Of a DNA stretch of 64,000 nt, positions 3,064 to 50,641 are shown one piece after another. Under the pieces are notes generated by a model that saw nothing but the letters and a program-made list of their open reading frames with translations, made no database searches and had not been told where the DNA came from. This DNA is from Candidatus Poribacteria bacterium (lineage in GTDB: Bacteria; Poribacteria; WGA-4E; WGA-3G), in NCBI GenBank assembly GCA_965214095.1, contig OZ243938.1, positions 3,232,001-3,296,000 of the forward strand, in the 5' to 3' direction. Position 1 is the first letter of the stretch. Every line of letters starts with the position of its first letter. Both the position numbers and the translations under genes were made by a program.

Positions 3064-3166
3064 TTGACATTCCGTTCCAATCTGATAAAATAGTAACCCA
3101 TTCTATCGGATCATCCTGTTAGCTTTTTTCGGCAGTATGCACCCGATTTGTACCTAACCCGCGTCA
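3064..3166 (+). promoter_or_regulatory. Tandem sigma70 and ECF-type promoters
   Basis: TTGACA-N16-TAAAAT (3064-3091) and TGCACCC-N17-CGTCA (3138-3166). Confidence 0.65.
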
Positions 3167-3226
3167 TTATAAGTACAGACATAAGATTTGGATACATACT
3201 TTTTCGCACACTTTGAAAGGTGACTT

Positions 3227-6200
3227 ATGAAAGACAATGACGTTGAATTAATCCACCGCATCCTTGAAGGTGATGATTCTGCTTTCTCCACCTTAGTTGA
3301 GAAATATCAGAAGCAGGTTCACGCACTTGCATGGCGTAAAATCGGTGATTTCCATATTGCCGAAGATATAACACAGGACACCTTCCTGAAAGCATATCAG
3401 AAACTCACGACACTTAAGAACCCGCAACGATTCGCAGGATGGCTCTATGTGATTGCAACACGTTGCTGCCAAGCATGGCTACGCAAAAAACAGATACAGA
3501 CCGAATCGTTAGAAGAAATTGATAGTGATGCGTTAGAACCTGAGGCATATTCACGATATGTTTCTGAGGAGGAGACGAAAGTAACCGTTGCAGCACAACG
3601 TCAAGTCGTCAAGAAACTCCTTGCAACATTGCCTGAGAGTGAACGCACGGTGATAACATTACACTACTTTGGTGAGATGACGTGTGAAAAGATGAGCGAG
3701 TTTTTAGGTGTATCCGCGAACACAATAAAGAGCAGATTACGCCGCGCACGGAACCGTTTGAAACAAGAGGAACCGATGATCCGAGAAGCAATTACGAACT
3801 TCAAAATATCTCCAACACTTACTGAAAATATAATGCAAGAAGTATCACAGATCAAACCTACTCCCCCTTCAGCAAGCAAACCTTTAATTCCGTGGATGAT
3901 GGGTGCCGCAGGGGCAGTATTGATTGCACTGATGTTTGGTATAGGTGGCCAGTTCTTAGCACGTTTCCAAAAACCGTATAGTTTAGATGCTCAATCTGAA
4001 AGGACGGTTGAACTTGTAGATGCACAGGTTGTTCAAAACCTTCAGATAGAATCTGACAACAGAAATCAAACAGGGATGCGATCCGATTTAGGTGGTAGAA
4101 GTAATGGCGATGGAGAGAATGCGGAACAGGCTTTAGGGGACCAAATCGATTACACACGATGGAATTTGCCGATGGGGGCAAAACGGAGATTCGGAAAAGG
4201 AATATTGAACGACATGGAGCTTTCACCTGATGGCAGAACAATTGCAAGCAAAGGGTATCGTAGAACAATTTGGCTATGGGATGCGGAAACGGGTGAACAC
4301 TTGCGTACAATCAAGGTGCCAAATGCTCCAGCCACAGGTTATCAATTTTTTAAAAATGGCACTATGGAAACAACAGTTATTCCTCTTAGTCAATACAATC
4401 CTGACGATGACAGAGCTTCAATTATAGGTTTTAGCGGTTTTAATAATAAAAAAACCAAAGCTGCATACATTGTTTCCTCCGGTCCACTCAGATCAATTGA
4501 ATTCTTAGCAGACAGTAAAACTCTTATGACTCAGAATTTGGATGGTACTGTCTGGTTATGGGATATCACTTCAGGAGAACAGAAAGCATTATTTCGTCCA
4601 GAACTACCTGGATTGAAACTTGATAGTTACATAAGTTGGGTTAATCTTTATCCTGATCAATGGCGGCTGGCGGCTGATGTCTATTTTGCTCCTTCAGGTG
4701 AAGTTATTTATGCTCTCGCTGCGGGAGATAGAATTGGTACAATTTACATACAAGATGGACACACTGGTAAACTATTACGCACACTGGAGGGACAAAGTAA
4801 AATTATAAGCAAAAAAAATACCATAGGTCGAATAGGTTATGGACAAAAAACACCTATTCAAAGTCGCTTGCAAATTCCGGGAATAAAAGATGTCTTTTCA
4901 GGTAAGGAACCTCGGCGAGGCGTGGAATGGATAACAGAATTATATTTTGCGCCAGATGGCAAAACACTTGTGAGTAAAAGCCGATTCAGAAACAGTAATA
5001 GGAGTAGTTATAGTGGTGCCGTTGAACTTTGGGATGTTAAAACAGGTGAACTGCTAACAAGACATGGATTGGGCACAGATTTAAAGTTCTCAGGAGATGG
5101 AAAAGCACTCGCATTTATGAATGGGGTGGGAAGAGGGTACAAGGGATGTGTGATATGGGATCTTGCAGATCGTCGTAAAATTGCTGAATTTGCGGGTAAG
5201 GTTGACCTAAAGTTTTCAAGAGATGGGAAAACATTCACTATTATACGGAATGACAGTTTAGAGATGTGGGATATCGCGACGCGTCGCAAAATCACATCAA
5301 TGAGTACACCTCCAGAACTGTTGACAGTTCTTCCAGACCGGCATGCATTTTCAGGAGATGGTACAATCTTTGCTGCTGTAAATAGATACGGCACAGTCAA
5401 TTTATGGGAAACACAAACTGACACACAACTACGCACCCTCACTACAAACTATTCAACACCAATTACTACGATGGCATTCACACACGATGGCAAATCGCTT
5501 GTAAGTGGGAACGCTTCCGGCAACATTCAACTCTGGAATTTAAACACTGGTAAAGTAAGCAGCACACTAACATCACCTGAAAACAAGTCTATTTATGGAT
5601 TAGTTTTTGCAGAGGACAATGCCACACTCGTCAGTGGAGGCATAAGAAACTTTGATAAATGGAATATTACCACTGGAAAAAGAGTTAACACTTACACTCT
5701 ACAATGGGCAGTGGCACAAGTTTTTAGCAGTACCTCTCATTATGGTATTGGGAGTTCAGGCGATACCGTCTTTACATGGCCCACTACGATTATAGCATTG
5801 ACCCCAAAAGGCGGAAAAATCGCCAAAACTATTTGGTCTTCACATGAAAGAAAAACTGAGGAAGATGGAAGTGAGATTAAGGTATGGGATATTCCGACTA
5901 GCGAACACCTATGTACCGTAACAAATGAATCTTTTGGTCAAACGTTAGCATTCACATCCGATGGAAATATGTTCGCTACTTTGGATGAGGATATATCATA
6001 CACTGTAGATGAACATACTGGTAAGAAAGTTGGAGATTTTAATAAATGTATAGTGTACTTATGGGACACATATACTGGCAAAAAATTAGCAGCATTTGAC
6101 GTGCCGAAGGATCCAGAAAATAACTTCAATCGACCTGATATTTATGCTGGAGTTTTTACACGCGACAGCAAAACGTTTGCTGCTGCTGGGAGTTTTGGAG

Positions 6201-6526
6201 ACAATTCAATCTTTTTATGGGATATTAAAACAAAGACGCATTTCGCAACGCTCAGAGGACATGGACACGTTGTTTGCAGATTGACAGTTTCACCGGATGA
6301 TACTATTCTTGCCAGTGGGGATTCAAATGGTGAAATTCGTTTGTGGAAAATACCTTCAGGTGAACATCTCGTTACATTCCAATCGCCTGGTGGACACATT
6401 AGCAATATTACATTTGCACCTGATAGTAAGAGTTTCGCAAGCACAAATGGTCGTTCAGATGGCGTATCTTCTAATTCCAGAGAAGGTGGAACCATATTCC
6501 TATGGGATGTGCCAAATGTAAAGTAA
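3227..6526 (+). CDS. ECF sigma factor fused to TM helix and WD40 beta-propeller domain
   Basis: sigma2 (AEDITQDTFLKAYQKL..FAGWLYVIA), sigma4 (LPESERTVITLHYFGEMTCEKMSEFLGVSANTIKSRLRRAR), hydrophobic helix, WD40 repeats. Confidence 0.92.
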   Translation: MKDNDVELIHRILEGDDSAFSTLVEKYQKQVHALAWRKIGDFHIAEDITQDTFLKAYQKLTTLKNPQRFAGWLYVIATRCCQAWLRKKQIQTESLEEIDSDALEPEAYSRYVSEEETKVTVAAQRQVVKKLLATLPESERTVITLHYFGEMTCEKMSEFLGVSANTIKSRLRRARNRLKQEEPMIREAITNFKISPTLTENIMQEVSQIKPTPPSASKPLIPWMMGAAGAVLIALMFGIGGQFLARFQKPYSLDAQSERTVELVDAQVVQNLQIESDNRNQTGMRSDLGGRSNGDGENAEQALGDQIDYTRWNLPMGAKRRFGKGILNDMELSPDGRTIASKGYRRTIWLWDAETGEHLRTIKVPNAPATGYQFFKNGTMETTVIPLSQYNPDDDRASIIGFSGFNNKKTKAAYIVSSGPLRSIEFLADSKTLMTQNLDGTVWLWDITSGEQKALFRPELPGLKLDSYISWVNLYPDQWRLAADVYFAPSGEVIYALAAGDRIGTIYIQDGHTGKLLRTLEGQSKIISKKNTIGRIGYGQKTPIQSRLQIPGIKDVFSGKEPRRGVEWITELYFAPDGKTLVSKSRFRNSNRSSYSGAVELWDVKTGELLTRHGLGTDLKFSGDGKALAFMNGVGRGYKGCVIWDLADRRKIAEFAGKVDLKFSRDGKTFTIIRNDSLEMWDIATRRKITSMSTPPELLTVLPDRHAFSGDGTIFAAVNRYGTVNLWETQTDTQLRTLTTNYSTPITTMAFTHDGKSLVSGNASGNIQLWNLNTGKVSSTLTSPENKSIYGLVFAEDNATLVSGGIRNFDKWNITTGKRVNTYTLQWAVAQVFSSTSHYGIGSSGDTVFTWPTTIIALTPKGGKIAKTIWSSHERKTEEDGSEIKVWDIPTSEHLCTVTNESFGQTLAFTSDGNMFATLDEDISYTVDEHTGKKVGDFNKCIVYLWDTYTGKKLAAFDVPKDPENNFNRPDIYAGVFTRDSKTFAAAGSFGDNSIFLWDIKTKTHFATLRGHGHVVCRLTVSPDDTILASGDSNGEIRLWKIPSGEHLVTFQSPGGHISNITFAPDSKSFASTNGRSDGVSSNSREGGTIFLWDVPNVK

Positions 6527-6789
6527 AACAATCCACAAATGATTTGCATCACAATTCTTTTCTTGATGCACACTTCCAACCAATATTTCATTGAACACAA
6601 TCGCAGGAAATCAGGGTTATTTAGGTTTAAGGTTTCGCAATTATTGAGGTTAACGGACTGTTAATTCCCTTCAACGGTCTTATCACTGAATTTATTGGAT
6701 ATATTGATTCTTATCTGAACCAGGATTTTCAGGATTAGTAGATTTTCAGGATTATGAGTGTGGCACTGTATAAAAAACTTGCAGAATTA

Positions 6790-6818
6790 TGCAACCGTTT
6801 TCCTCCTTAGTCGCGTCA
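6790..6818 (+). promoter_or_regulatory. ECF-type promoter
   Basis: TGCAACC-N17-CGTCA; same architecture upstream of all 14 fusion genes. Confidence 0.7.
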
Positions 6819-6981: not shown

Positions 6982-9912
6982 ATGAAAAATGATGATGTTG
7001 AACTAATTCAAAGTGTTCTTTCTGGCGATGAAGATGCTTTCGCTGAACTTGTGAATAAGCATAAAAAGGCTGTTCACGCACTTGCATGGCGGGTAATTGG
7101 AGACTTCCACATCGCTGAAGACATCACACAGGACACCTTCCTGATAGTGTATCAGAGACTTCACACCTTGAAAGATCCAACCCAGTTTCTTGGATGGCTC
7201 TATGTGATTGCAAGACGCCGATGCTACGCCTGGCTCCGTAAGAAACGGATACGCACACAACCGTTGGAGGACGCAGAAACAACTATGATACAAGAAGATG
7301 TATATTCACGGCATGTAATAGAAGAACGTGCTAACACTGCTGTTGATGCACAACGCGAAGTTGTCAAGAGACTTCTCGCGAAGCTAAAAGAGAGCGAACG
7401 CACGGTGATGACGCTCTACTACCTCGGTGAAATGACAGTCGAAGAGATTAGCAAGTTCTTAGGTGTTTCTGTCGGAACGATAAAAAGTCGGTTACAGCGG
7501 GCACGGAACCGTCTACAGAAGGAGGAAACACTGATTAGAGAAGCACTCGAACATTTCCAACTCTCACCGAACTTAACTGAAAACATCATGCAAGAAGTTT
7601 CACGTCTCAAACCTACGCCTACCGCCAGCAAACCCATAGTGCCGTGGGCAATTGCTGCAACAAGTGCGGTCTTAATTGTGTTGTTACTTGGTATAGGCAG
7701 TCAACACTTAGTCCGTTTTCAGCAACCTTATTCATTAGATGCACAAGCAGAGATGACGGTTGAACTCGTTGATGCTCCTATTATGTTAAATGTTGATAAG
7801 AAACCAGATGTACGACGTGAAATTGGGAATTCAAACGCACTTAATAAAAACGATAGCAACGGTCAGAAACCTGATAACGTTTTGTTAGCCGCCGCGCAGG
7901 TGGAAGGAGAAGACATGTCTAATCAAAAACAACAGTGGATTCATACAAAACCAGTTAGTGGAACTGGAGCCCTGAACCTATGCCCTACCCCTGATGGGGA
8001 TATCTATGTAATAATGAATTATCCTGCTGTCTACAAATTAGCAACAGGTAGAAACACTTGGCAACGTATCCGCATTAACATTAATACCTGGACTGGTAGA
8101 GCCTATATGTCCAAGTGGAACAATACGTTGTACTTTTTGAATAATAATGAACTCTTCACTTCAAAAGATGACGGTGAAAATTGGGATTTACTCTATTCTT
8201 GGAAAGGAGAGAAGTACAAGTTATTAAGTGAAAAATTAGTACTAACGCAACAAGCGTTTTACGTCGCTTTTGAGAATGGTGTTCTCCAGTCTCAGGACAA
8301 AGGCAAAACATGGAAAAACATAAGCGATGGGTGGATGGGAAGAATGAGAACATTAGTTGAGATCCAGAATACGATTTTCGCGGGAACTGACAATGGTTGT
8401 TCTCGTTACAGTGGTGGCGAATGGAAACGCTTGAAATTCCCAGTCACGATTGGCAGGATTATTTCAACTGCAGCAACCAACAGGAAACTCTATATTGCTG
8501 CATGGTTGGATAAGAAAGTTTCTCAAGAATTGAAACGTACTTGGGGAATATTTCGATCAACGGATCTCGGAGATTCATGGCAAGATATTACGCCTACAAA
8601 TGCTTGGAATTTAAACGCAATTCCGCCTGGTATCAGACTCATTGCTTTAGGAGAAACAGTCATAGCAATGGAACGTGGTTTGATCCGTTCAATTGACGGT
8701 GGAGATACCTGGCTGAGTCCACAAGCACATAACACATCACCTACAATGGAAAGTGGTTTGGCAGTTGCGATAGTGAAAAACGATACTATTTATATCAGTA
8801 GTGAAAACGGACTCCATTATTCCACTGATCTTGGTGAATCATGGCACAAGATGAATATCAAGCAAAAGGGAGGAAATATATATGATCTAATCGCTTTTAA
8901 AAAGGTTGATAAAAATCATAGCACACCTGCTGTTCTCTATGCAAGAATAGAATTAGCACTAGGACACGGAGATGAGATTCAAAAAACCGATGACGGCGGC
9001 AATTCTTGGAAACCCGTTCAAATAGCAATACCAATGACAGAACCTAACAGAGAAACCCCACCGCATATCACCCAAATTATTAAAGACGGTGATGTTCTTT
9101 ATGCAAAGGGTAAGGAAAATATATTTCCCAGTTATTATACACGTATTTACCGCGTATCCAGTGATGGTAGGACGCTTGTGCAGATTCAGGGTATGCCAGT
9201 TCTTAATTCGTATGAGTTAGATGAACAAGTATCCGAAGGAAGTGCTCTTGGTGCAACTCAGTTTCTTAAACTGTTTACACAACCAAAAAGTAAACTTAGA
9301 AGTGACCTTACAGAAAGAGGGTTACACGGAGCGTTTGCTGTTACGGAAGACACGTTCTACGTTGAATATAACTATAAGCTCTTCCGGTGGAAGTTTGGTG
9401 ATACAGAATTCTATGACACTGAACAGGAAGAAACCATAGAATTGACTGAGGACATAATAAAGAAAGATCTTAAACTGGCTGTTTCAGGGAATACTGTCTA
9501 TGTTGGAAAACGGGATGGCAATCTCGTTGTATCGCTTAATAGAGGTAACAATTGGGTTGATCTCACCCCTACTCTACCTTTCACAGTTAGAGCTTTCAAT
9601 GACATCGTGGTTGTCGGTAACACAGTATATGTAGCAACAGATGCAGGCGTCGCTGCATCAGATCAAGGTAATAATTGGGGTGTTGTTACTGATTTAGAGA
9701 CTACTAATCTCGTCATGGAACATTTGACTGTTGATGGCACAAAACTCTATGGCGTTACCAAAGATACTGGCATCTATCGATTGGAAAATGACACATGGAA
9801 TCAGATTGTGTCAGAGATACCAGAGAGAATAACATCTCTCGCTGTTGATGGAAATACCTTATATGTGGGAACAGATGGTCAAGGTATGCTTCACCTAAAT
9901 CTAAATAAATAA
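6982..9912 (+). CDS. ECF sigma factor - TM - Asp-box/BNR beta-propeller fusion
   Basis: sigma2/sigma4, TM PWAIAATSAVLIVLLLGIG, repeated SxDxGxxW Asp-boxes. Confidence 0.92.
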   Translation: MKNDDVELIQSVLSGDEDAFAELVNKHKKAVHALAWRVIGDFHIAEDITQDTFLIVYQRLHTLKDPTQFLGWLYVIARRRCYAWLRKKRIRTQPLEDAETTMIQEDVYSRHVIEERANTAVDAQREVVKRLLAKLKESERTVMTLYYLGEMTVEEISKFLGVSVGTIKSRLQRARNRLQKEETLIREALEHFQLSPNLTENIMQEVSRLKPTPTASKPIVPWAIAATSAVLIVLLLGIGSQHLVRFQQPYSLDAQAEMTVELVDAPIMLNVDKKPDVRREIGNSNALNKNDSNGQKPDNVLLAAAQVEGEDMSNQKQQWIHTKPVSGTGALNLCPTPDGDIYVIMNYPAVYKLATGRNTWQRIRININTWTGRAYMSKWNNTLYFLNNNELFTSKDDGENWDLLYSWKGEKYKLLSEKLVLTQQAFYVAFENGVLQSQDKGKTWKNISDGWMGRMRTLVEIQNTIFAGTDNGCSRYSGGEWKRLKFPVTIGRIISTAATNRKLYIAAWLDKKVSQELKRTWGIFRSTDLGDSWQDITPTNAWNLNAIPPGIRLIALGETVIAMERGLIRSIDGGDTWLSPQAHNTSPTMESGLAVAIVKNDTIYISSENGLHYSTDLGESWHKMNIKQKGGNIYDLIAFKKVDKNHSTPAVLYARIELALGHGDEIQKTDDGGNSWKPVQIAIPMTEPNRETPPHITQIIKDGDVLYAKGKENIFPSYYTRIYRVSSDGRTLVQIQGMPVLNSYELDEQVSEGSALGATQFLKLFTQPKSKLRSDLTERGLHGAFAVTEDTFYVEYNYKLFRWKFGDTEFYDTEQEETIELTEDIIKKDLKLAVSGNTVYVGKRDGNLVVSLNRGNNWVDLTPTLPFTVRAFNDIVVVGNTVYVATDAGVAASDQGNNWGVVTDLETTNLVMEHLTVDGTKLYGVTKDTGIYRLENDTWNQIVSEIPERITSLAVDGNTLYVGTDGQGMLHLNLNK

Positions 9913-10096: not shown

Positions 10097-10175
10097 TCTT
10101 GGGAAATTCAGCATTTGCAAAAGAAAGGACAAGAAAAACCGAAAACTAAATAGTCCTGCTACGACTAACTCATCC

Positions 10176-10279
10176 TTGACAAACCCACCTGATTTGGTAG
10201 AATAGTATCTCACTGTTTCCGACCAACCCATCTGCAAACCTGCAGAATTTGGCAACCTTTTTACATATATCCTGCGTCA
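10176..10279 (+). promoter_or_regulatory. Tandem sigma70 and ECF-type promoters
   Basis: TTGACA-N16-TAGAAT (10176-10203) and GGCAACC-N17-CGTCA (10251-10279). Confidence 0.7.
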
Positions 10280-13577: not shown

Positions 13578-13681
13578 TTGACAAACCCACCTGATTTGGT
13601 AGAATAGTATCTCACTGTTTCCGACCAACCAATCTGTAAACCTGAAAAATTATGCAACCGTTCTCCTCCTAACTTGCGTCA
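13578..13681 (+). promoter_or_regulatory. Tandem sigma70 and ECF-type promoters
   Basis: TTGACA-N16-TAGAAT (13578-13605) and TGCAACC-N17-CGTCA (13653-13681). Confidence 0.7.
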
Positions 13682-16953: not shown

Positions 16954-17057
16954 TTGACAAACCCACCTGATTTGGTAGAATAGTATCTCACTGTTTCCGA
17001 CCAACCCATTTGCAAACCTGCAGAATTTGGTAACCTTTTTGCATATATCTTGCGTCA
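16954..17057 (+). promoter_or_regulatory. Tandem sigma70 and ECF-type promoters
   Basis: TTGACA-N16-TAGAAT (16954-16981) and GGTAACC-N17-CGTCA (17029-17057). Confidence 0.7.
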
Positions 17058-23735: not shown

Positions 23736-23764
23736 TTGAGACTATTTCACCTCATACCGAGTCA
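23736..23764 (+). promoter_or_regulatory. ECF-type promoter (TTGAGAC class)
   Basis: TTGAGAC-N17-AGTCA. Confidence 0.65.
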
Positions 23765-37336: not shown

Positions 37337-37365
37337 TGCAACCGTTTTACACCTAATTTGAGGCA
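37337..37365 (+). promoter_or_regulatory. ECF-type promoter with altered -10
   Basis: TGCAACC-N17-AGGCA (sister copy at 50613 has AGTCA). Confidence 0.5.
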
Positions 37366-37417: not shown

Positions 37418-37894
37418 ATGAAAAACGACGGTGCACTTATTAGACAAATACTCAGCGGTGATCAAATCGCTTTCGTTGGACTCGTGAAAAAGTATCAAAA
37501 ACAAGTTCACGTACTAGCATGGCGGAAGATTGGAGATTTCCACATTGCCGAGGACATTACCCAGGATGTCTTTTTGAAAGTATATCAGAAACTTCACACT
37601 CTGAAAGATCCGAATCAGTTTTCTGGGTTGCTCTACGTCGTGACAACTAACCTATGCAATACATGGCTCAGTAAAAATCGGGATCATTACCAGGTATCAG
37701 AAGATATTGAGACAACTATGATAGAAAGAGACGTATATTCCCGACATATAACAGAAGAGCGAGTTAAGACCACTCTTGAAGCACAACGTGAAGTGGTCAA
37801 GAGATTACTTGCTAAGTTGAAAGAAAGTGAACGCACGGTAATGACTCTCCATTATCTCGGCGAGATGACAGTAGAAGAGATTAGCAAGTTCTAA
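37418..37894 (+). pseudogene. Truncated ECF sigma part of a split fusion gene (nonsense in sigma4)
   Basis: ATG 37418 matches paralog 50692; TTA(L) to TAA at 37892-37894; frame continues GVSAGTIKSRLQRAR into 37964; conserved sigma2 W changed to L (FSGLLYV). Confidence 0.85.
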
Positions 37895-37963
37895 GGGGTT
37901 TCTGCTGGAACGATAAAGAGCCGACTTCAACGAGCGCGTAACCGTCTACAGAAGGAGGAAACA

Positions 37964-40264: not shown

Positions 40265-40281
40265 GTAGATTTGCGCAAATG

Positions 40282-40476: not shown

Positions 40477-40580
40477 TTGACAAACCCACCTAATTTGGTA
40501 GAATAGTATCTCACTGTTTCCGACCAACTAATCTGTAAACCTGAAAAATTATGCAACCGTTCTCCTCCTAACTTGCGTCA
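40477..40580 (+). promoter_or_regulatory. Tandem sigma70 and ECF-type promoters
   Basis: TTGACA-N16-TAGAAT (40477-40504) and TGCAACC-N17-CGTCA (40552-40580). Confidence 0.7.
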
Positions 40581-40629: not shown

Positions 40630-43629
40630 ATGAATAACGACGATGTTGCACTTATCAGACAAATTCTTGATGGTGACGAAATCGCTTTCGCTGAACTTGT
40701 GAAAAAGTATCAAAAACAGGTTCACGTGTTAGCATGGCGAAAGATTGGTGACTTTCATATCGCTGAGGACATTACCCAAGACACCTTCCTGAAAGTGTAT
40801 CAGAGACTACATACCTTGAAAGATCCAAACCTATTTTCTGGGTGGCTCTATGTAATTACGACACGTTTATGTGCTACATGGCTACGGAGAAATAGAATTC
40901 AAACGCAACCTTTGGAGGATGTAGAGGAAAGCATGATACAGAGAGATGCATATTCACAACATGTCGCTGATGAACGCGCTAAAACAACCTCTCAGACACA
41001 ACGGGAAGTAGTCAAGAGACTTCTCGCGAAATTGAAAGAGAGTGAACGTACGGTGATGACGCTCTACTACCTCGGTGAAATGACAGTTGAAGAGATTAGC
41101 AAGTTCTTAGGTGTTTCTGCAGGAACGATAAAAAGCCGGCTTCAACGAGCACGTAACCGTTTACAAAAGGAAGAAACAATGATTAGAGAAGCACTCGACC
41201 ATTTCAAACTCTCACCGAACTTAACTGAAAACATCATGCAAGAAGTTTCGCGCCTCAGACCTACACCTTCCACCAGCAAACCTATAGTGCCGTGGGCAGT
41301 AGCTGCTGCAAGTGCAGTCTTAATTGTATTGATGCTTGGCATAGGCAGTCAACAATTACTCCGTTTTCAAAAACCTTTTTCATTAGATGCACAGGCAGAG
41401 ATGACAGTTGAACTTGTTGACACACCAATTGTGCTAAATATAGACACAAACCCAGATGTCCAAAATCGATTGGGCAATACAAATCCGTTGGGTATAAGTG
41501 AGAATGAAGGTCAGAATCCAGATGACATCTTGTGGGCAGTCGCGCAGGGGGAAGGAAAAGATGTTTCTGCTCCTAAACAACAGTGGATCCTGTCCGAACC
41601 TATCTATGGAAGCATAGTACAAGGTTTATGTGCTACCGAAGAAGAACTTTACGCTGTTAATTTTGCACACATATACAAATGGCAAGACGATAGCACGGGA
41701 TGGCAACAAGTTAGTGGTAACATCAGCGAAGTCAATGGTAAACAGATTGAAATCAATAGTGCAAGTAAAGTTCCGATAGCAAAGTTAGACAATACTCTTT
41801 ATATTGTTTTAGAAAATTTATTCTTAGCTTCAGAAGATGATGGGAAGAACTGGAAGATTGTTCATTCATGGACAGATGATTATCGTCTGCCTAACAAATT
41901 AGTGCTTACAGATCAAGAGTTTTGTGTCCAATTTAACAATGCCGTTTTCCGTTCAGAGGATAGAGGCATGACATGGAAGAATGTGAACGTTGATATATTT
42001 CAAGGTTCCAACTTTCTTATAGCAATACAGAACTCAGTATATGCTGGATCAAACACTGGCTTGTATCGCTGGAATACCGACAGATGGCAACGTATAAAAC
42101 TACCCATACCTGAAGCAATATTGGTCACTGATGCAGCAGCTACCAAAGATCGACTGTACGTAATGGCATCATTAGGTACTGACTTTTTTGATGATAAAGC
42201 AGCACGGAAGGGACAACAGCGGACTTGGTGGATATTCAGATCAACAGACCTCGGAAATTCATGGAAAGATATTACACCGACAAATGCCTGGCCCGTAAAG
42301 GGGGTACCACCCGATATCAATATGGTTGCTGCTGGTGAAACTATTCTGTTAATGGGACAAGGTCTGGTGCGTTCTACCGATGCAGGCGATACTTGGATGC
42401 CACTACAAGCCTCTACCACCTTCCCTATGAAAGTTTCCTCTGATAATACTCCTGTAGCAGTAAATGAAGGCACTTTTTTTGCTTCAAGGGGAGGTTTACA
42501 CCGGTCCACTGATGCTGGTCAATCATGGGAAAAAGTAAGAATCGCTCAGGATAAGATGAGATATGTTATAGAAAACCTAATCAAATTCAATAAGAACAGA
42601 AAAAGTCAAAACAGGCTACCTACTCTCTACGGGATAGATGTGGCAAGGCTTGTAAAAACAACTGACCAAGGTAAGTCTTGGAACGTTGTTCAGGTTGAAA
42701 TGCCTATGACGATACCTGTAAGAGAAGACCAACCATGGATTAATCAACTAACTACAACTGGTGATGTAATCTATGCAAGAGGCCACAGTGATTACCCTAT
42801 CGGAGAATTGCAATACTATCGTGTATCCGAAGATGGGAACACATTAGTTCCTATTCAAGGAATTCCTACCTTTGACTCAAGGAGATTAAGAGACCATCTA
42901 CATGAATCAAAAGATCTCTCTATAGAAACGCTGCAGGAAGAGTTTTCTGGAGCAACTCAATTCTTCAATGCGTTGCTTATATCAGATCCTCAACAACAGG
43001 ATATACTCATACAATCAGGACTTAACGGAACTTTTGCTGTCAGTAATGATATCATCTATATGGAGTACAACTTTAAACTCTTTCGGTGGGAACCAGGAGA
43101 TACAGAATGGCACGACATAAGGCAAGAAGAAACCTCAATCATCGCATGGCAAAATCTCCAACTCGCTGTCTCAGGAGATACAGTCTACGTCGGAAAACGT
43201 GATGGTCACCTTGTCGTATCGTTTGATAGGGGAGATCGCTGGATTGATCTTACACCAGCCCTGCCATTTACTGTTACAACTTTCAAAGAGATTGTGGTTG
43301 CTGGATCCACCGTGTATGTTGCAACGGACGCAGGCCTCATTAAATCTGATGATGGCAAAAATTGGCATATCCTTACTGATTCAAAGGGAACAAATCTCAT
43401 CATGGAACAGTTAGCAGTTGATGGCACAACGCTTTACGGTATTACCCAACAAACAGATCTATATATTTTGGAAAGTGATACTGACACTTGGAAACAGATC
43501 ATCACGGATATTCCGGAAGGTGCAATAATGGATGTAACGGCTAACGGAACATCTCTTATTGTTGCTGGCAGCAATTTATACTTGGGTACAGTATTTGAAG
43601 GTATACTGCATTTAACTCTTGAAGAATAA
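40630..43629 (+). CDS. ECF sigma factor - TM - Asp-box/BNR beta-propeller fusion
   Basis: sigma domain near-identical to 13731 gene; propeller of the 20667/23813 type. Confidence 0.92.
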   Translation: MNNDDVALIRQILDGDEIAFAELVKKYQKQVHVLAWRKIGDFHIAEDITQDTFLKVYQRLHTLKDPNLFSGWLYVITTRLCATWLRRNRIQTQPLEDVEESMIQRDAYSQHVADERAKTTSQTQREVVKRLLAKLKESERTVMTLYYLGEMTVEEISKFLGVSAGTIKSRLQRARNRLQKEETMIREALDHFKLSPNLTENIMQEVSRLRPTPSTSKPIVPWAVAAASAVLIVLMLGIGSQQLLRFQKPFSLDAQAEMTVELVDTPIVLNIDTNPDVQNRLGNTNPLGISENEGQNPDDILWAVAQGEGKDVSAPKQQWILSEPIYGSIVQGLCATEEELYAVNFAHIYKWQDDSTGWQQVSGNISEVNGKQIEINSASKVPIAKLDNTLYIVLENLFLASEDDGKNWKIVHSWTDDYRLPNKLVLTDQEFCVQFNNAVFRSEDRGMTWKNVNVDIFQGSNFLIAIQNSVYAGSNTGLYRWNTDRWQRIKLPIPEAILVTDAAATKDRLYVMASLGTDFFDDKAARKGQQRTWWIFRSTDLGNSWKDITPTNAWPVKGVPPDINMVAAGETILLMGQGLVRSTDAGDTWMPLQASTTFPMKVSSDNTPVAVNEGTFFASRGGLHRSTDAGQSWEKVRIAQDKMRYVIENLIKFNKNRKSQNRLPTLYGIDVARLVKTTDQGKSWNVVQVEMPMTIPVREDQPWINQLTTTGDVIYARGHSDYPIGELQYYRVSEDGNTLVPIQGIPTFDSRRLRDHLHESKDLSIETLQEEFSGATQFFNALLISDPQQQDILIQSGLNGTFAVSNDIIYMEYNFKLFRWEPGDTEWHDIRQEETSIIAWQNLQLAVSGDTVYVGKRDGHLVVSFDRGDRWIDLTPALPFTVTTFKEIVVAGSTVYVATDAGLIKSDDGKNWHILTDSKGTNLIMEQLAVDGTTLYGITQQTDLYILESDTDTWKQIITDIPEGAIMDVTANGTSLIVAGSNLYLGTVFEGILHLTLEE

Positions 43630-43704: not shown

Positions 43705-43733
43705 GGCAACCATTTTGCATCTATCTTGCGTCA
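43705..43733 (+). promoter_or_regulatory. ECF-type promoter
   Basis: GGCAACC-N17-CGTCA. Confidence 0.65.
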
Positions 43734-43774: not shown

Positions 43775-46700
43775 ATGTATCTGATGAACAACGATGATGT
43801 AACCCTTATTCAACGCATTCTCGCTGATGATGAAGCTGCTTTTGCAGAGCTTGTGAAGAAATATCAGAAAGCGGTGCATACTCTTGCTTGGCGAAAGATT
43901 GACGATTTTCACATTGCAGAGGACATCACACAAGATGCCTTCCTGAAAGTGTATCAGAGACTCCATACACTAAAAGATCCGAAGCAGTTCTCTGGATGGC
44001 TCTATGTGATTACTTCAAACTTATGTGCCACATGGCTTCGCAAAAAACGGTTACGGACACAACCTATAGAGGACGAAGAGGCAGTTATGACTCCAAGAGA
44101 TGTATATTCTCAGCATGTCGTAGAAGAACGGAACCAGGCGGCTGCTGAAACACAACGTGAAGTGGTCAAGAAACTGCTGGCGAGGTTAAAAGAGAGTGAA
44201 CGGACAGTGATGTCACTTTATTATCTTGGAGAGATGAGGGTTGAAGAGATAAGCAGATTTCTGGGGGTATCCACAAGCACAATCAAAAGCCGTCTTAGAC
44301 GTGCACGGAACCGTTTACAGAAGGAGGAAACGATGATTAGAGAAGCCCTTGAACATTTCAAACTTTCACCGAACTTCACCGAAAATATCATGCAAGAAAT
44401 ATCACATCTCAAACCTACACCTTCCACCAGCAAACCCCTCGTACCGTGGACAGTTGCTGCTTCAAGTGCAATCCTAATAGTGTTGATGCTTGGCATAGGC
44501 AGTCAGAATTTAGTTCGTTTTCAGAAACCTTATTCATTAGATGCACAAGCAGAGATGACGGTTGAACTTGTTGACACACCAATTGTGCTAAATATAGACG
44601 CGAAGCCAGATGTTAGAAATCAATTGGGCAGTATAAATCCTGCTGGTGATAGTGAAAATGAAGGTCAGAAACCAGATGAAGTCCTGTTAGCTGCCGCAGA
44701 AACCGAGGATGAGAACAAGGTATCCGTTCCCAAACAGCGGTGGATTCAGTCTGAACCTGTCAAAGGAAGTGATGTAGATGCTTTATCTGTAACATCTAAT
44801 GGTGAACTATACTCAGTTGCTAACAGGCATATTTACAAAATTGAATCCGATGGGGAAGCGTGGCAACAGATCGCAAATATTGATACACTGGATGTTAAGT
44901 ATGGGAGTTCTGCTTTTATCAAAGAGTGGGACAATATGCTCTATCTGTTATTAGATTCTACAATACTTACTTCAAAAGATGACGGTAAGACATGGGAGTT
45001 AGTTAACACACTGCTAACAGATTCTACATTTGCTCTTGATTTCATACTAACTAACCAAGCTTTTTATATCATTTTTTCTAATTACACTGCTTTTCGGTCT
45101 GAAGATAAGGGTGTAACATGGGAGGCAATGAACGTCGATTTTCCGCAGAACCCCAACTCTATAGTAGTGATTCAAGACACAATGTTTACTGGTACATTTA
45201 ATGGACTCTACCGATTAAAGGAAGACAACTGGGTACCAATGAAACTCCCTGGATCTGTTAGTGCAATTCTCTCAGTTGCTGGATCTGATGGGAAGATTTA
45301 TGTTGCGGCAGAGTTTAGCAAGGACGTGACTAGTTCTCAAAAAGTTCGTCAGGGGTTGGCACGGGGCTGGTGGATATTTCGCTCAACAGATCTCGGTGAT
45401 TCATGGGACGATATAACGCCGAAAAACGCATGGCCTGTAATGGGGTTGCCACCTAAAATCAAACTCGTTGCTGTCGGTGAAACACTCTTAGCAATGGAAC
45501 AGGGAATGGTTCGATCGACCGATGCAGGAAACACATGGCAGCCAAGACAACTACCTGGCACCTCACCTTCAATGGATAATAGACTCAGTTATGTTGCTAC
45601 GGTGAACGACAGATCCATTTATGTTGGCAGCAAAAAGGACGGCCTTTACCGCTCCACTGATGGCGGTATATCCTGGGACCCAGTAAATATTAATGGACGA
45701 AACTGGAAAATAATAACAAATTTAATTACGGTTGAAGGAAACAATAAAACACCAAATATGCCGTCCATGTTGTATGCAGAATTCGCAGGAGATATTGTAA
45801 AAACTACTGACAAGGGCAAATCTTGGAGAAGAATCCGGATGGGAATACCTATGACAGCTCCTGTTAGAGAAGTTCCGCCGTATTTTAGTCGGCTAGGTGA
45901 ATTCGGTGGTACCCTCTATGCCAAAACAGATGGTTGGCGCAGCTTTAGAAGCGAATATAAAACAGGTTTATATCGCATCTCTGAAGATGGAAACTCAGTC
46001 ATGTCTATACAAGGCATGCCTACCTTTAACTCAAGCATGTTGAAACATCTATGGAAGAACGGAAGAAGGGGATCTTTAGATGTGTCAGATAAGTCATTCA
46101 TTGAACAGTTGAATGAGAATTTCGTTGGGGCAGACCAGTTCTTTAAAACGTTGGCACAGGAGAAAACCCTAACGCAAAACGAACTTGATCAGGAACAACT
46201 ATATGAGGATCAGGAACGACTCATACTGGAAGGTTTATTAGACGGTGCTTTTGCTGTCAGCGGCGACACGTTTTACTTTGAATACAACTTTAAACTCTTC
46301 CGATGGAAGTCAGGTGAAACAACGTGGTACGACACGGGTGTACAGGAGACGGGTGAACTCCGTTATTTTGAAGCTGCAAAGGCATTTGAAAGAGAGGGAC
46401 TCTCAAATGAAAAGATTGGCGAAATTATTAGGGCTTGGCAATTCGGGTTCAAACTTGCCGTTTCAGGTAACACTGTCTATGTCGGCAAACGGGATGGCAC
46501 CCTCTTACAATCATTTGATGCAGGAACTAATTGGGTTGATCTCACGCCTGTACTACCATTCCCAGTAAAAGCATTCAAAGATATCGTGATTGTTAATGAT
46601 ACAGTGTATGTAGCAACAGATGCAGGTGTCACCACATCAGATCGTGGAAATAATTGGGGTGTTATTACCGATTCAGAAGGCACAAATCTCAATATGGACA

Positions 46701-46891
46701 TACTGACTGCTGATGGCACAAAACTCTATGGCGTTACCAAAGATACTGGCATTTATCGTTTGGAAAATGATGCATGGTATCAGATTGTTTCAGAGATTCC
46801 AGATAACATAAATTCTCTCGCTGTTGATGGGAATACCTTATTCGTGGGAACACAAGACCGCGGTATGCTTCATTTCACTCTTGAAGAATAA
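43775..46891 (+). CDS. ECF sigma factor - TM - Asp-box/BNR beta-propeller fusion (start may be ATG 43784)
   Basis: Same architecture; sigma4 GVSTSTIKSRLRRAR. Confidence 0.92.
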   Translation: MYLMNNDDVTLIQRILADDEAAFAELVKKYQKAVHTLAWRKIDDFHIAEDITQDAFLKVYQRLHTLKDPKQFSGWLYVITSNLCATWLRKKRLRTQPIEDEEAVMTPRDVYSQHVVEERNQAAAETQREVVKKLLARLKESERTVMSLYYLGEMRVEEISRFLGVSTSTIKSRLRRARNRLQKEETMIREALEHFKLSPNFTENIMQEISHLKPTPSTSKPLVPWTVAASSAILIVLMLGIGSQNLVRFQKPYSLDAQAEMTVELVDTPIVLNIDAKPDVRNQLGSINPAGDSENEGQKPDEVLLAAAETEDENKVSVPKQRWIQSEPVKGSDVDALSVTSNGELYSVANRHIYKIESDGEAWQQIANIDTLDVKYGSSAFIKEWDNMLYLLLDSTILTSKDDGKTWELVNTLLTDSTFALDFILTNQAFYIIFSNYTAFRSEDKGVTWEAMNVDFPQNPNSIVVIQDTMFTGTFNGLYRLKEDNWVPMKLPGSVSAILSVAGSDGKIYVAAEFSKDVTSSQKVRQGLARGWWIFRSTDLGDSWDDITPKNAWPVMGLPPKIKLVAVGETLLAMEQGMVRSTDAGNTWQPRQLPGTSPSMDNRLSYVATVNDRSIYVGSKKDGLYRSTDGGISWDPVNINGRNWKIITNLITVEGNNKTPNMPSMLYAEFAGDIVKTTDKGKSWRRIRMGIPMTAPVREVPPYFSRLGEFGGTLYAKTDGWRSFRSEYKTGLYRISEDGNSVMSIQGMPTFNSSMLKHLWKNGRRGSLDVSDKSFIEQLNENFVGADQFFKTLAQEKTLTQNELDQEQLYEDQERLILEGLLDGAFAVSGDTFYFEYNFKLFRWKSGETTWYDTGVQETGELRYFEAAKAFEREGLSNEKIGEIIRAWQFGFKLAVSGNTVYVGKRDGTLLQSFDAGTNWVDLTPVLPFPVKAFKDIVIVNDTVYVATDAGVTTSDRGNNWGVITDSEGTNLNMDILTADGTKLYGVTKDTGIYRLENDAWYQIVSEIPDNINSLAVDGNTLFVGTQDRGMLHFTLEE

Positions 46892-46989: not shown

Positions 46990-47087
46990 GAATATGAAAA
47001 GAGAGGATAATGGTATAATATCTGAACATTATACTCTCTTTTCATATTCTTTAAAAACTTGAGACTTTTTCTCCGCAAGTCGCGTCA
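46990..47087 (+). promoter_or_regulatory. 23-bp inverted repeat enclosing TATAAT, followed by ECF-type promoter
   Basis: Arms 46990-47012/47027-47049 (22/23); TTGAGAC-N17-CGTCA at 47059-47087. Confidence 0.6.
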
Positions 47088-47440: not shown

Positions 47441-47446
47441 GAATAT

Positions 47447-47539: not shown

Positions 47540-50530
47540 ATGAAAAATGCTGATGTTGAACTCATCCAACGTGTCCTTGATGGCGATGATACTGCGTTCT
47601 CAGAGCTTGTGAGAAATTATAAGAAGTCAGTCCATGCGCTTGCATGGCGAAAAGTTCAAGACTTCCACATCGCAGAGGACATCACACAGGAAACATTTCT
47701 GAAGGCATATCAGAAGTTGTCAACTTTGAATGAATCACAGTCATTTGCAAGTTGGCTCTATGTGATAGCGGCGAATGAATGTAAGGCATGGCTTCGTCGG
47801 AAACGTATACGGACACAGTCTTTGGAAGATATCAATGATGCAGAGTTGGAACAAGCGACCTATTCCAACTATGTCATTAATGAAAAAGAACGGACATCAG
47901 TAGAAGCGCAGCGCGAAGTTGTCAAGAAGTTGCTTGCGAAGCTGCAGGAGAGTGACCGTACGGTCATAACGCTCTATTACCTCGGGGGAATGACGTATGA
48001 AGAAATCAGCAGATTCTTAGGTGTATCGGTCAGTGCGATCAAGAACCGCCTCTACCGAGCGCGCCAGTTTCTAAAAAAGGAGGAACCCATGATAAGAGAA
48101 GTTTTAGAGAATTACCAAATCACACCCAATTTCACTGAGAACATCATGCAAGAAATATCACGTCTCAAACCTACACCTTCCACCAGCAAACCGCTTGTGC
48201 CGTGGGCAATTGCTGCTACAAGTACAATCTTAATTATGTTGATGCTTGGCATAGGCAGCCAACAATTAGTGCGTTTTCAGCAACCTTTTACATTAGATGC
48301 GCAAGCAGATATGACGGTTGAACTTGTTGACACACCAATTGTGCTGAATCTGGATTCTGTGCCAGATGTTAGAAATAGACTGGGCAGTATAAATCCTGCT
48401 GGTGATAGTGAAAATGAAGGTCAGAAACCAGATGAAGTCCTGTTAGCTGCCGCAGAAACCGAGGATGAGGACAAGGTATCCACACCTAAACAGCAGTGGA
48501 TTCAGTCTGAACCTATTAAAGGTAGTCAAGTATATAGTCTAAAAGGCACCACGCAAGGTGATCTGTATGTTCTTGTGAGTAATAGAGGAACTCCAAACAT
48601 CCTCAAGTTAACATCGGATGGAAATACTTGGCAATCTATAGATGGTTACCCGTCAGGTACAGTTTGGGGATTTAACGCAGCTATGGTAGAGTGGAATAAT
48701 ACTTTTTACATTATACCATCTAACGAGCTCTTTGCATCAGAAGATGAAGGAAAGACTTGGAATTCACTTTACACGTGGTCTAAAGACCACAATGTGATTG
48801 ATCTTCTACCCATGGATAATGCATTCTACGCTGCATTTCAAGAAGGTATTTATAAGTCTGATGATTTAGGAAAGACGTGGAAAGCAATACAAGATGAGCA
48901 AATCAAGTATATCGAATCTCTAGTAAGAATCCAAAACACATTGTTTGTTGAAACATCCACCAAACTTTACCGATTGGATGACGATGGTTTGAACTCATTG
49001 GAATTTCCAGTACCTGTTAGGAGCATTATTTCAGTTGCAGGAACTGATGGAAAGCTTTATGTTGAAGTAACGTCTAATTCAGATCGTAGTTGGTGGATAT
49101 TCCGTTCAACTGATCTTGGGGATTCGTGGATAGATATAACACCGACAAACGCTTGGTCTATAGAAGGACAACCACCTTATTGCAAATTGATTGCATCTGA
49201 AGAAACCCTGTTGGTAATGGAACAGGGAATGGTTCGCTCAACTGATGGAGGGAATACATGGCTGCCTCCACAGTTACCAGGAACCACTCCTTCAATGAGT
49301 AGTTCATATAATGCAGTTGCTGTAAATCAAGACACCTTTTATGTTGGAAGTAGTGATGGCTTACATCATTCAACTAATAAGGGAAAATCGTGGGATTTAG
49401 TGAGAGTCGCTCCAGATATGAGAAGACGTGTAATGTTTAATCTAATCGCAACCAAAAATAGTGTCGATAGTCTAAACTTGATGCCGACACTCTATGGGAT
49501 AGTTGAAGTCGGAGAGATAACAAAAACTAATGATGATGGCAAGTCATGGGAGACTGTTCGTGTTGATACACCTATGTCAACATCAAACAGAGGAAACGTA
49601 CCAACAATAACCCAGATTGTTAAATCAGGCGATGATGTCTACGTTAAAGGAGGATCTCTTGGTGAGGGAAAGGTAGGTCATTACATAGTATCTGACAACG
49701 GGAACACTTTAGTCCCAATTCAGGACATGCCAACTTTCAGTTCAACTGAATTAAGGATGCGTCTATTTACTTCTAAAGATCTTACGATAGGAGAGTTGCA
49801 AGAAGATTTCTCTGGTGCAAAAAATTTCTTCCAACAGATGCTTAATTCAGCACCTCAACAACTAATTAAGCTTGAAGAACTTGGACTTCGTGGCCCTTTT
49901 ACTGTCAGTGGTGACACATTCTATACGGAATACAACCTTAAACTCTTTAGATGGAATCCTGGAGATACAGAATGGTATGACACTGGTCAAGAAGACATTG
50001 GTGACTTTCCCTTGGATGAATTGTTCATAAGCACATTTAAGTCACACTTCATTGTTCCCAAACTTGCAGCTTATGACAACACAGTTTACTACGGAAAGCG
50101 GAATGGACAATTGGTAGTATCGTTTGATAAAGGTAATAATTGGGTTGATCTCACTCCAGGTCTACCCTATAAGGTAAAAACATATAATAGTATCGTGTTT
50201 GTGGGTTCCACAGTATATGTGGCAACAAATGCAGGTATCATTACATCAGATGATGGGAGAACGTGGAAAACTGTCACTGATTCTGGTAGATCTAATATCA
50301 TCATGGCGCATTTAGCTGTGGACGGTACAACACTCTATGGCATTACTAACACAACGAGTATCTACCGTTTAAATAGTGAAAGTGGTGCTTGGGAACAGGT
50401 TGTCACTAAGATACCAGAAATTAAAAATCTCAAAATAAGGGATTTCGTTACATCTTTCGCGGTTGCTGGAAGGACGTTGTATGTAAGTACTGAAGTAAAC
50501 GGAATGTTCCATTTTAACCTTGATGAATAA
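47540..50530 (+). CDS. ECF sigma factor - TM - Asp-box/BNR beta-propeller fusion (RBS displaced by insertion)
   Basis: Intact 996-aa ORF; sigma4 GVSVSAIKNRLYRAR. Confidence 0.9.
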   Translation: MKNADVELIQRVLDGDDTAFSELVRNYKKSVHALAWRKVQDFHIAEDITQETFLKAYQKLSTLNESQSFASWLYVIAANECKAWLRRKRIRTQSLEDINDAELEQATYSNYVINEKERTSVEAQREVVKKLLAKLQESDRTVITLYYLGGMTYEEISRFLGVSVSAIKNRLYRARQFLKKEEPMIREVLENYQITPNFTENIMQEISRLKPTPSTSKPLVPWAIAATSTILIMLMLGIGSQQLVRFQQPFTLDAQADMTVELVDTPIVLNLDSVPDVRNRLGSINPAGDSENEGQKPDEVLLAAAETEDEDKVSTPKQQWIQSEPIKGSQVYSLKGTTQGDLYVLVSNRGTPNILKLTSDGNTWQSIDGYPSGTVWGFNAAMVEWNNTFYIIPSNELFASEDEGKTWNSLYTWSKDHNVIDLLPMDNAFYAAFQEGIYKSDDLGKTWKAIQDEQIKYIESLVRIQNTLFVETSTKLYRLDDDGLNSLEFPVPVRSIISVAGTDGKLYVEVTSNSDRSWWIFRSTDLGDSWIDITPTNAWSIEGQPPYCKLIASEETLLVMEQGMVRSTDGGNTWLPPQLPGTTPSMSSSYNAVAVNQDTFYVGSSDGLHHSTNKGKSWDLVRVAPDMRRRVMFNLIATKNSVDSLNLMPTLYGIVEVGEITKTNDDGKSWETVRVDTPMSTSNRGNVPTITQIVKSGDDVYVKGGSLGEGKVGHYIVSDNGNTLVPIQDMPTFSSTELRMRLFTSKDLTIGELQEDFSGAKNFFQQMLNSAPQQLIKLEELGLRGPFTVSGDTFYTEYNLKLFRWNPGDTEWYDTGQEDIGDFPLDELFISTFKSHFIVPKLAAYDNTVYYGKRNGQLVVSFDKGNNWVDLTPGLPYKVKTYNSIVFVGSTVYVATNAGIITSDDGRTWKTVTDSGRSNIIMAHLAVDGTTLYGITNTTSIYRLNSESGAWEQVVTKIPEIKNLKIRDFVTSFAVAGRTLYVSTEVNGMFHFNLDE

Positions 50531-50541
50531 AACCATTTTCT

Positions 50542-50562
50542 GGACGGTGTCAAACACCGTCC
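50542..50562 (+). terminator. Hairpin after gene, possible terminator
   Basis: GGACGGTGT-CAA-ACACCGTCC; weak U-tract; degenerate copy at ~37268. Confidence 0.4.
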
Positions 50563-50612
50563 TTCTCATCTCCATCATCCCTTACCTCCAAATTTCTCTT
50601 TATGCAGAATTA

Positions 50613-50641
50613 TGCAACCGTTTTACTCCTAATTTGAGTCA
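50613..50641 (+). promoter_or_regulatory. ECF-type promoter
   Basis: TGCAACC-N17-AGTCA. Confidence 0.65.

Follow-up and report, generated by a model that had tools for sequence, protein, structure and literature searches.

Why should fourteen genes standing in tandem, each encoding its own sigma domain, be preceded by promoter-like elements with differing -35 boxes, and are these differences matched by the sigma that each gene encodes? The question is raised by a 64-kb stretch of a Candidatus Poribacteria genome (5.2 Mb, 41% G+C; contig C1:3232001-3296000), the whole of which is referred to here as the window. Between 687 and 53826 all its large open reading frames are read from the + strand, and they include 14 tandem fusion genes, 13 intact and one nonsense-interrupted (gene 37418; genes are named by their first position), in which an extracytoplasmic function (ECF) sigma domain is joined to a membrane segment and a propeller. 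We show that the -35 hexamer and the recognition helix of the downstream sigma vary together, at the equivalents of the residue/base pairs Ser172/-34, Phe175/-32 and Arg171/-31, and that promoter and sigma domain travel as a single cassette, which has been recombined onto very different sensor domains. Judged from sequence, the array probably represents a set of autoregulatory membrane ECF sigma/propeller fusions, whose own promoters match their helices and whose cassettes are exchanged between sensors.

Pairing of promoters with recognition helices

Pfam matches to PF04542 (Sigma70_r2) and PF08281 (Sigma70_r4_2) were found in 14/14 fusion genes, with only sigma regions 2 and 4 present, as in ECF sigmas. 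The three genes scored against TIGR02937 all reached 97.8-107.4 bits (cut-off 42.9), this being the only model passed at its cut-off, and a sigma profile matched the SigW, RpoE and SigH structures with E values of 5e-30 to 1e-24. SigW provides both the nearest solved structure and the nearest specific NCBIfam model to the fusion sigma domains; its equivalog cut-offs (NF007223 and TIGR02948; 209 and 243 bits) are missed, with scores of 111-114 and 98-103 bits.

A search of both strands of the window for any of four 7-mers followed, after 15-19 nt, by [CA]G[TG]CA returned exactly 14 sites, all on the + strand and none on the - strand, one per fusion gene. The spacer is 17 nt at 14/14 sites, as the original prediction had stated. 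The four 7-mers, class A (TGCACC[CA]), class B (TGCAACC), class C (GG[CT]AACC) and class D (TTGAGAC), pair in all 14 cases with the four sigma4.2 helix variants that had been described, and these match the translations as written. In other genomes the first base of these 7-mers varies, so that the conserved core is a hexamer (TGCAAC, TGCACC or TGAGAC). In its degenerate IUPAC form the motif has 16 matches, compared with 4.8 +/- 2.1 in 100 shuffles, none of which reaches 16. The two extra matches (18334 on the - strand and 45988 on the + strand) fall within genes, and the remaining 14 are the promoter sites.

These elements share a common anatomy. A TGnnAC hexamer is followed by a T-tract and, after 17-18 nt, by CGTCA-yTATA, and the class D hexamer stands 1 nt nearer the -10 than that of the other classes. 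The end of the -10 lies 24-60 nt from the ATG, except at 6982 (163 nt) and 47540 (452 nt). ECF sigmas typically use an AAC-type -35 with a CGT-type -10, often ahead of the gene for the sigma itself. TGnnAC, 17/18 nt and CGTCA stand before 14/14 window genes; manual reading finds them before all 34 intact family genes of the same genome, and a masked scan finds an ECF-type promoter in 189 of 209 unique loci of other genomes. Across six helix classes (12-54 loci each), the -35 core, the T-tract and GCGTCA-yTATA are conserved while the spacer is variable. This layout supports the assignment of the window elements as predicted ECF-type promoters fronting ECF sigma genes. A housekeeping-promoter reading was rejected, as the spacer from TGCAAC to TATA would be ~24 nt.

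The pairing extends beyond the window. In the same genome, 8/8 members with the helix VS[AV]NT[IV][KR]SRLRRA (N4..R11) have TGCACC, and at least three changes of this combined label are forced by the starred branches of the tree, at three or more tree positions. For other Poribacteria genomes, 240 loci, a sample biased to relatives of classes B, D and A, gave 209 unique gene-plus-upstream pairs, of which 189 were usable, 18 being dropped for a promoter score below 13 and two for want of a helix match. Promoters were called by a weight matrix with the -35 7-mer masked; compared with the manually read 7-mers, this caller recovered 26/34 own-genome genes, shifted five by 1-2 nt and missed three. 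Among the 189 pairs, the class A helix has TGCACC in 26/27 cases, the class B helix TGCAACC in 18/18 and the class D helix TGAGAC in 28/32, the first base of the 7-mer at class D loci being T in 10, A in 16 and G in 2. Helices of the class C type (xSTIKSRLRRAR) stand with [AG]GCAAC in all 14 cases, and the exact class C string with GGCAACC in one of three. Other helices have cores of their own: GTAAC with SAIK[LI]RLH (L/I8 plus H11; 16/16), GAAAC with GAIKSRLH or SAVKSRLH (12/12), TGTGAC with K[NT]R[VI]Y (10/10), GCGAC with SAIKSRLS (4/5) and AGAAAC with KTRLRR (2/2).

Co-change was counted on a FastTree phylogeny of 217 tips with Fitch reconstruction, after six of 223 rows without an in-frame hexamer had been dropped. 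Over 432 branches the -35 changes on 41 and the helix on 89, and both change on 23, against an expectation of ~8.4 (odds ratio 6.3, p 1e-7). As many as eight other 14-column windows, each omitted from the tree likewise, served as controls, and seven of them gave odds ratios of 0.95-2.5. The eighth, columns 148-161, which cover the first helix of the sigma4 helix-turn-helix, gave 5.5, so the co-change signal is specific to sigma4 and not to the recognition helix alone.

Helix positions were numbered from an alignment with RpoE, in which h7 corresponds to Arg171, h8 to Ser172 and h11 to Phe175. The -35 numbering was fixed before the matrix was made, by aligning AAC with the RpoE consensus, GGAACTT, which places A at -32 as Todor et al. 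2020 also give it. On this numbering, h8 changes with -34 in 7 of the 11 changes at that base and with -33 in 4 of 8, h7 changes with -31 in 2 of 3, and h11 changes with -32 in 6 of 6, always Arg to or from non-Arg with C to or from A. The crossed combinations give no co-change for h8 with -32 and one for h11 with -34, and the 11 changes at -36 include two co-changes with any helix position (one h4, one h11). The co-changes thus fall on the three published pairs (Todor et al. 2020: Ser172/-34, Phe175/-32, Arg171/-31).

This places the finding close to existing work. In Todor et al. 2020 (PMC7776599), the same three residue/base pairs were derived from autoregulatory ECF promoters, with Arg171/-31 and Ser172/-34 tested by saturation mutagenesis and Phe175/-32 modelled, and single-base promoter changes and single-residue changes are reported to have drastic effects on activity. 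The logic, the contacts and the pairing of an autoregulatory promoter with its sigma are the same here, and since the residue/base pairs are already in that work, what we describe is a natural instance of the known ECF sigma code and not a new one. The natural recognition code that had been proposed had therefore been solved already. What differs is that the variation lies within one young lineage-specific family and within single genomes, and that Arg at the Phe175 position plus Asn at h4 pairs with -32 C, where the partner described in PMC7776599 is -32 T.

As to the number of specificities, classes A and B differ at -32 (C versus A) and class D at -34/-33, which are positions relevant in the known code. 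Classes B and C differ only at -36, with almost no co-change in the helix, which favours three specificities in the window over the four proposed as channels, even though four variants are indeed seen. Across the phylum there are at least eight.

Promoter and sigma domain travel as a single cassette

With a threshold of 45% identity over the sigma domain, the genome has 36 family members. In a tree restricted to the 34 intact ones, with helix columns excluded and the two broken genes dropped, class D is a single clade (support 100/99) and class C a single clade (99/95) within a B+C clade (93/97). Class A forms two subclades, and the one containing 20667 groups as sister to class D (96/94). Genes 3227 and 20667 had been noted to share a class despite unlike sensors; they do so although they fall in different subclades and carry WD40 and BNR/Sortilin propellers, respectively.

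Within the pairs 13731/40630, 10328/17106 and 28302/34231, the sigma domains are 97-99% identical and the sensors only 47-51%. Their nucleotide sequences match at 92-100% between about -100/-200 and +500..900 and at 55-65% beyond. In 20667/23813 the pattern is inverted, with 45-74% in the 5' part and 80-94% after it, and the sensor parts of these class A and class D genes are 76% identical. Such abrupt breaks in identity indicate recombination and not unequal rates of change. The window contains ~10 distinct promoter-plus-sigma cassettes. The caution, voiced with the original prediction, that co-inheritance of promoter and sigma could explain part of the pattern was well placed, as cassette copying accounts for much of the 14/14. 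The accompanying suggestion that several sensors feed each class fits the near-identical cassettes on sensors that are 47-51% identical.

A separate observation concerns the 3' ends of 10328 and 17106 (13128-13428 and 19906-20206), which are again 91-96% identical over the last ~300 nt and the downstream spacer; the middle is 55-65% identical, so only the sensor core differs.

The array, its surroundings and the protein family

The coordinates of the genes, helices and promoter elements are collected in Table 1.

Table 1. Fusion genes, putative promoters and related elements of the window (positions counted from the first base of the window).
Feature	Coordinates	Strand	Details
ECF fusion gene 3227	3227..6526	+	1099 aa, sigma-transmembrane-WD40 propeller; helix VSANTIKSRLRRAR at 3710-3751
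ECF fusion gene 6982	6982..9912	+	976 aa, sigma-transmembrane-BNR/Sortilin propeller; helix VSVGTIKSRLQRAR at 7465-7506
Fusion gene 10328	10328..13315	+	995 aa; helix VSTSTIKSRLRRAR at 10811-10852
Fusion gene 13731	13731..16694	+	987 aa counted from this ATG; helix VSAGTIKSRLQRAR at 14214-14255
Fusion gene 17106	17106..20126	+	1006 aa; helix VSTSTIKSRLRRAR at 17589-17630
Fusion gene 20667	20667..23672	+	1001 aa; helix VSANTIRSRLRRAQ at 21150-21191
Fusion gene 23813	23813..26830	+	1005 aa; helix VSVSAIKNRLYRAR at 24296-24337
Fusion gene 28302	28302..31331	+	1009 aa; helix VSVSAIKNRLYRAR at 28785-28826
Fusion gene 34231	34231..37254	+	1007 aa; helix VSVSAIKNRLYRAR at 34714-34755
Fusion gene 37418	37418..40264	+	in-frame TAA; helix VSAGTIKSRLQRAR at 37898-37939, behind the stop
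Fusion gene 40630	40630..43629	+	999 aa; helix VSAGTIKSRLQRAR at 41113-41154
Fusion gene 43775	43775..46891	+	1038 aa; helix VSTSTIKSRLRRAR at 44267-44308
Fusion gene 47540	47540..50530	+	996 aa; helix VSVSAIKNRLYRAR at 48023-48064
Fusion gene 50692	50692..53826	+	1044 aa; helix VSAGTIKSRLQRAR at 51172-51213
ECF-type promoter, class A	3138..3166	+	TGCACC; before gene 3227
ECF-type promoter, class B	6790..6818	+	TGCAAC; 163 nt ahead of the 6982 ATG
ECF-type promoter, class C	10251..10279	+	GGCAAC; before gene 10328
ECF-type promoter, class B	13653..13681	+	TGCAAC; before gene 13731
ECF-type promoter, class C	17029..17057	+	GGTAAC; before gene 17106
ECF-type promoter, class A	20614..20642	+	TGCACC; before gene 20667
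ECF-type promoter, class D	23736..23764	+	TGAGAC, -10 AGTCA; before gene 23813
ECF-type promoter, class D	28227..28255	+	TGAGAC; before gene 28302
ECF-type promoter, class D	34156..34184	+	TGAGAC; before gene 34231
ECF-type promoter, class B	37337..37365	+	TGCAAC, degenerate -10 AGGCA; before gene 37418
ECF-type promoter, class B	40552..40580	+	TGCAAC; before gene 40630
ECF-type promoter, class C	43705..43733	+	GGCAAC; before gene 43775
ECF-type promoter, class D	47059..47087	+	TGAGAC; separated from gene 47540 by the repeat insert
ECF-type promoter, class B	50613..50641	+	TGCAAC, -10 AGTCA; before gene 50692
93-nt upstream block	10157..10249	+	near-consensus sigma70-like promoter TTGACA-16-TGgTAGAAT
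Sigma70-like promoters	3064-3091, 10176-10203, 13578-13605, 16954-16981, 20539-20566, 40477-40504		

In each fusion protein the sigma domain spans residues 1 to ~190 and is followed by a short conserved linker of ~30 residues to the transmembrane helix; a single hydrophobic segment at ~217-246 is found in 13/13 intact proteins. The propeller part (~750 residues) is of BNR, Sortilin-Vps10, PSII_BNR and DUF6242 types in most genes; WD40 repeats occur in gene 3227 only, the other 13 matching BNR/Sortilin-Vps10/PSII_BNR types. The one hydrophobic segment, together with the domain order, points to a topology with a cytoplasmic sigma domain, a single membrane pass and the propeller outside. The window sigma domains are mutually 58-99% identical, and C81 is the sole cysteine invariant both among the 13 window sigma domains and among the 35 family members.

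Gene 37418 is probably a young pseudogene. It has a single in-frame TAA (37892-37894), directly preceding the helix (ISKF*GVSAGTIKSRLQRAR, the asterisk marking the stop), is otherwise open over 948 codons, and has AGGCA instead of CGTCA as its promoter -10. At gene 47540, a repeat element (47130-47539, 406-410 bp) with terminal repeats of ACCCAAACCTAAAGG type is inserted between the ribosome-binding site and the ATG. Three other copies on C1, near 781029, 959171 and 5082162, are 97.5-98.5% identical, shorter partial matches also occur in the genome, and the repeat looks like a small non-autonomous mobile element. Palindromic repeats of GGTTCGGTTTCCTAACCGAACC type (380-401 and 20214-20235) recur between the array genes and upstream of family genes elsewhere on C1; they resemble repetitive extragenic palindromic (REP) elements.

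Two of the class D promoters (28228-28245 and 34157-34174) contain an inverted repeat, TGAGAC...GCCTCA, which covers the -35 and part of the spacer and was flagged on the - strand by a terminator scan. In the leader between the 6790 promoter and the 6982 ATG, contigs of the sequencing runs X1 and X2 join across ~115-150 nt at 6832-6948, so related strains appear to be without that segment. Ahead of the array, a WD40 protein of 776 aa (687-3017) begins with the family linker motif and transmembrane helix (MEIIMQEVSRL...), and over residues 2-46 it shares 58% identity with gene 13731 (residues 200-243). Upstream of it lies a sigma70-like promoter and no ECF promoter; by its sequence, this gene is a family member minus its sigma domain.

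Near-consensus sigma70-like promoters (11/12 matches, with a TG extension) lie ~75 nt upstream of six of the ECF promoters. Five of the six are within the 93-nt block of Table 1. Its further copies precede 13731, 17106, 20667 and 40630, so that it spans classes A, B and C, and it occurs nowhere else in the genome; its 3' end directly adjoins the -35. Class D genes have no upstream sigma70-like promoter. In the metatranscriptome run X1, the one RNA library with related sequence, which contained 0.08 of the sampled words, contigs 90-99% alike cover the 5' parts of several genes; as X1 consists of contigs, it is uninformative on starts, strand or level. Nothing from run X6 matched the stretch.

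The family is large. Among 8000 candidates scored, at least 6871 full-length relatives were found at E <= 1e-10, annotated merely as 'sigma-70 family RNA polymerase sigma factor' or 'hypothetical protein', and the close relatives of the sigma domain are all titled Candidatus Poribacteria or uncultured-bacterium metagenome-assembled genome. Titles and abstracts of the open-access papers and preprints found hold nothing on sigma fusions in Poribacteria, and 'sigma' occurs 0 times in Kamke et al. 2014. The 32066-base contig C2 of the same assembly has 64% G+C against 41% for the main contig, and is probably foreign to the genome, either a binning contaminant or another replicon.

Proposed function and alternative readings

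Outside the family, the class patterns give no sign of a regulon. Genome-wide, they had 7, 9, 20, 8 and 7 non-family matches, compared with 3, 8, 29, 8 and 13 in a reversed-sequence null, and those of 112 extended -10 matches which have a family-type -35 stand before family genes. Within the array, no ECF-type site was found upstream of the non-sigma genes 687, 27116 and 31533. The output channels of the original prediction are thus not borne out, as the genome motif scan found no sites above chance outside the family promoters. With no other targets visible, the main product of activation may be the receptor proteins themselves.

Several known systems resemble the array in part. The B. subtilis sigmaM/W/X/V promoters (tgaAACnTTTt ... 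CGTC; Gaballa et al. 2018, PMC5758882) share the tgaAAC, the -35-proximal T-tract and the CGTC/CGTA -10, but those sigmas are free, are held by separate anti-sigmas and have regulons, whereas the present sigmas are built into membrane sensor proteins and have no visible regulon. The sigma/anti-sigma hybrid IutY and the ECF48/52/53 groups (e.g. SCO4117), for which release by regulated proteolysis is accepted or proposed (PMC8999054), likewise combine sigma, transmembrane segment and extracytoplasmic domain in one polypeptide; here, by contrast, no zinc-finger/ZAS, FecR-type or other anti-sigma domain is detected, the linker is ~30 residues, and large BNR/Sortilin or WD40 propellers occur in dozens of copies per genome and in tandem arrays. 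ECF57, comprising planctomycetal ECFs with WD40-like C-terminal extensions (PMC8999054) at 5.3 copies per planctomycetal genome (PMC7826278), is also a lineage-specific multi-copy group with a propeller-type extension, and gene 3227 has WD40 repeats too. It differs in having two conserved cysteines that could link sigma2 and sigma4 (PMC8999054), where only C81 is invariant here; moreover, the window sensors are mostly of BNR/Sortilin type and are separated from the sigma by a transmembrane helix. The idea of distinct -35/-10 pairs with little cross-talk is shared with the orthogonal ECF sets of Rhodius et al. 2013 (PMC3817407), though these came from distant ECF groups, while here one or two -35 bases differ and the -10 is common to all.

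From these comparisons a working mechanism can be suggested. The sigma domain would be held at the membrane until a signal at the propeller activates it, the likely route being regulated proteolysis, by analogy with IutY and ECF52-type proteins (PMC8999054); the genome encodes two Peptidase_M50 homologs. Whether released or activated in place, the sigma would then drive its own promoter as well as those of paralogs that share its cassette type, giving positive feedback within a class. Cross-activation between the cores TGCAAC (B and C), TGCACC (A) and TGAGAC (D) would be kept down by the single-base differences in the -35. Basal expression could be supplied by the upstream sigma70-like promoters at six genes.

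A first rival is pure hitch-hiking, in which the promoters are real and the -35 differences neutral, all sigmas reading all promoters as one shared channel, with heavy cross-talk like that of B. subtilis sigmaM/W/X/V. Promoter and sigma domain do form one recombining unit (92-100% identical in four gene pairs), the window classes are mostly clades, the independent-pair tests are non-significant and the B/C difference at -36 has almost no counterpart in the helix. Furthermore, according to PMC5758882, closely related tgaAAC/CGTC ECF sigmas overlap in recognition, so orthogonality of the classes is not to be assumed. Nevertheless, the helix/-35 co-change far exceeds that of the sigma2 or linker windows, it is pairwise at three positions shown or modelled to set specificity, a given helix keeps its core even where lineages have diverged in the spacer, and drastic effects of single-base and single-residue changes are described by Todor et al. 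(PMC7776599). We therefore hold neutrality of the -35 differences to be unlikely.

Two further rivals detach the motif from the encoded sigma or from transcription initiation. A separate free-standing ECF sigma might read the motifs, the fusion proteins being its regulated targets or membrane decoys; the genome does have further ECF-like genes (25-35% identity), and a membrane-tethered sigma domain may not reach RNA polymerase. One external sigma, however, would leave the co-change between the -35 and the downstream helix unexplained, and the motif is not above chance in the rest of the genome, which makes this improbable. The bipartite element might instead be no promoter at all but, for example, a cassette recombination boundary or a leader RNA element, given that the shared 93-nt block stops just before the -35 and that RNA-library contigs span the element. 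Its boxes, 17-18 nt spacing, T-tract and 24-60 nt distance to the ATG nonetheless reproduce the layout of an ECF promoter, and its occurrence is strand-specific; we regard this explanation as very improbable.

The reading that we prefer, namely autoregulatory membrane fusions with matched promoters and exchangeable cassettes, must also be set against a body of contrary points. Clade structure and cassette copying mean that the window records ~3-4 class changes and not 14 independent cases. Independent pairs on the tree number three for N8/G, five for N4+R11/C (three concordant, two unchanged), one for L/I8 and two for ST+R11, too few for p 0.05, so that none of the tests is significant; none of the pairs is opposite to the typical pairing. 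The numbers of co-changes depend on a FastTree topology and on Fitch parsimony, with branch support below 80 for two of the six h11/-32 events and one of the seven h8/-34 events. As counter-examples, Arg at h11 goes with -32 A in class C and at locus L040, and His accompanies TGCACC at locus L238. Release of the sigma from the membrane is something we infer by analogy only, none of the 14 genes matched an anti-sigma Pfam family at E <= 0.001, and an AlphaFold2 model of residues 1-255 from a 35-row alignment (mean predicted local distance difference test score 49.1, predicted TM-score 0.34) was unusable for docking of the linker. The sigma70-like promoters at six genes imply that expression need not depend on self-activation, and X1 contigs (3046-3849, 10230-10743 and 13592-13819) run across ECF promoters, which, if they are RNA, means that transcripts begin further upstream.

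A bolder extension of the autoregulatory reading would be a closed, self-referential receptor network, in which the sigmas read only family promoters and -35/helix changes split the family into insulated groups. We consider this doubtful. The signal received by one propeller would raise the display of all receptors sharing its promoter-plus-sigma cassette, recombination of a cassette onto a new sensor would rewire which receptors are co-induced, and the sensor would be the output as well, e.g. a surface protein binding host or prey material in the sponge.

For the recognition code, the array and its relatives provide a dense natural test set. Each genome has dozens of paralogs, and Poribacteria as a whole have thousands; the -10 is shared, and a difference of one or two bases in the -35 is matched by one or two residues of the helix. 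It is at such resolution that the published code has been least tested, an example being the combination of -32 C with Arg at the Phe175 position, apparently dependent on Asn at helix position 4. Both the principle of recognition and the method are in the literature, and no new question is opened there. For the biology of the phylum, the finding points to a very large and undescribed family of membrane-anchored sigma/propeller proteins in uncultured sponge symbionts, whose exchangeable cassettes, together with the lack of a visible regulon, raise the question of what such sigmas are for.

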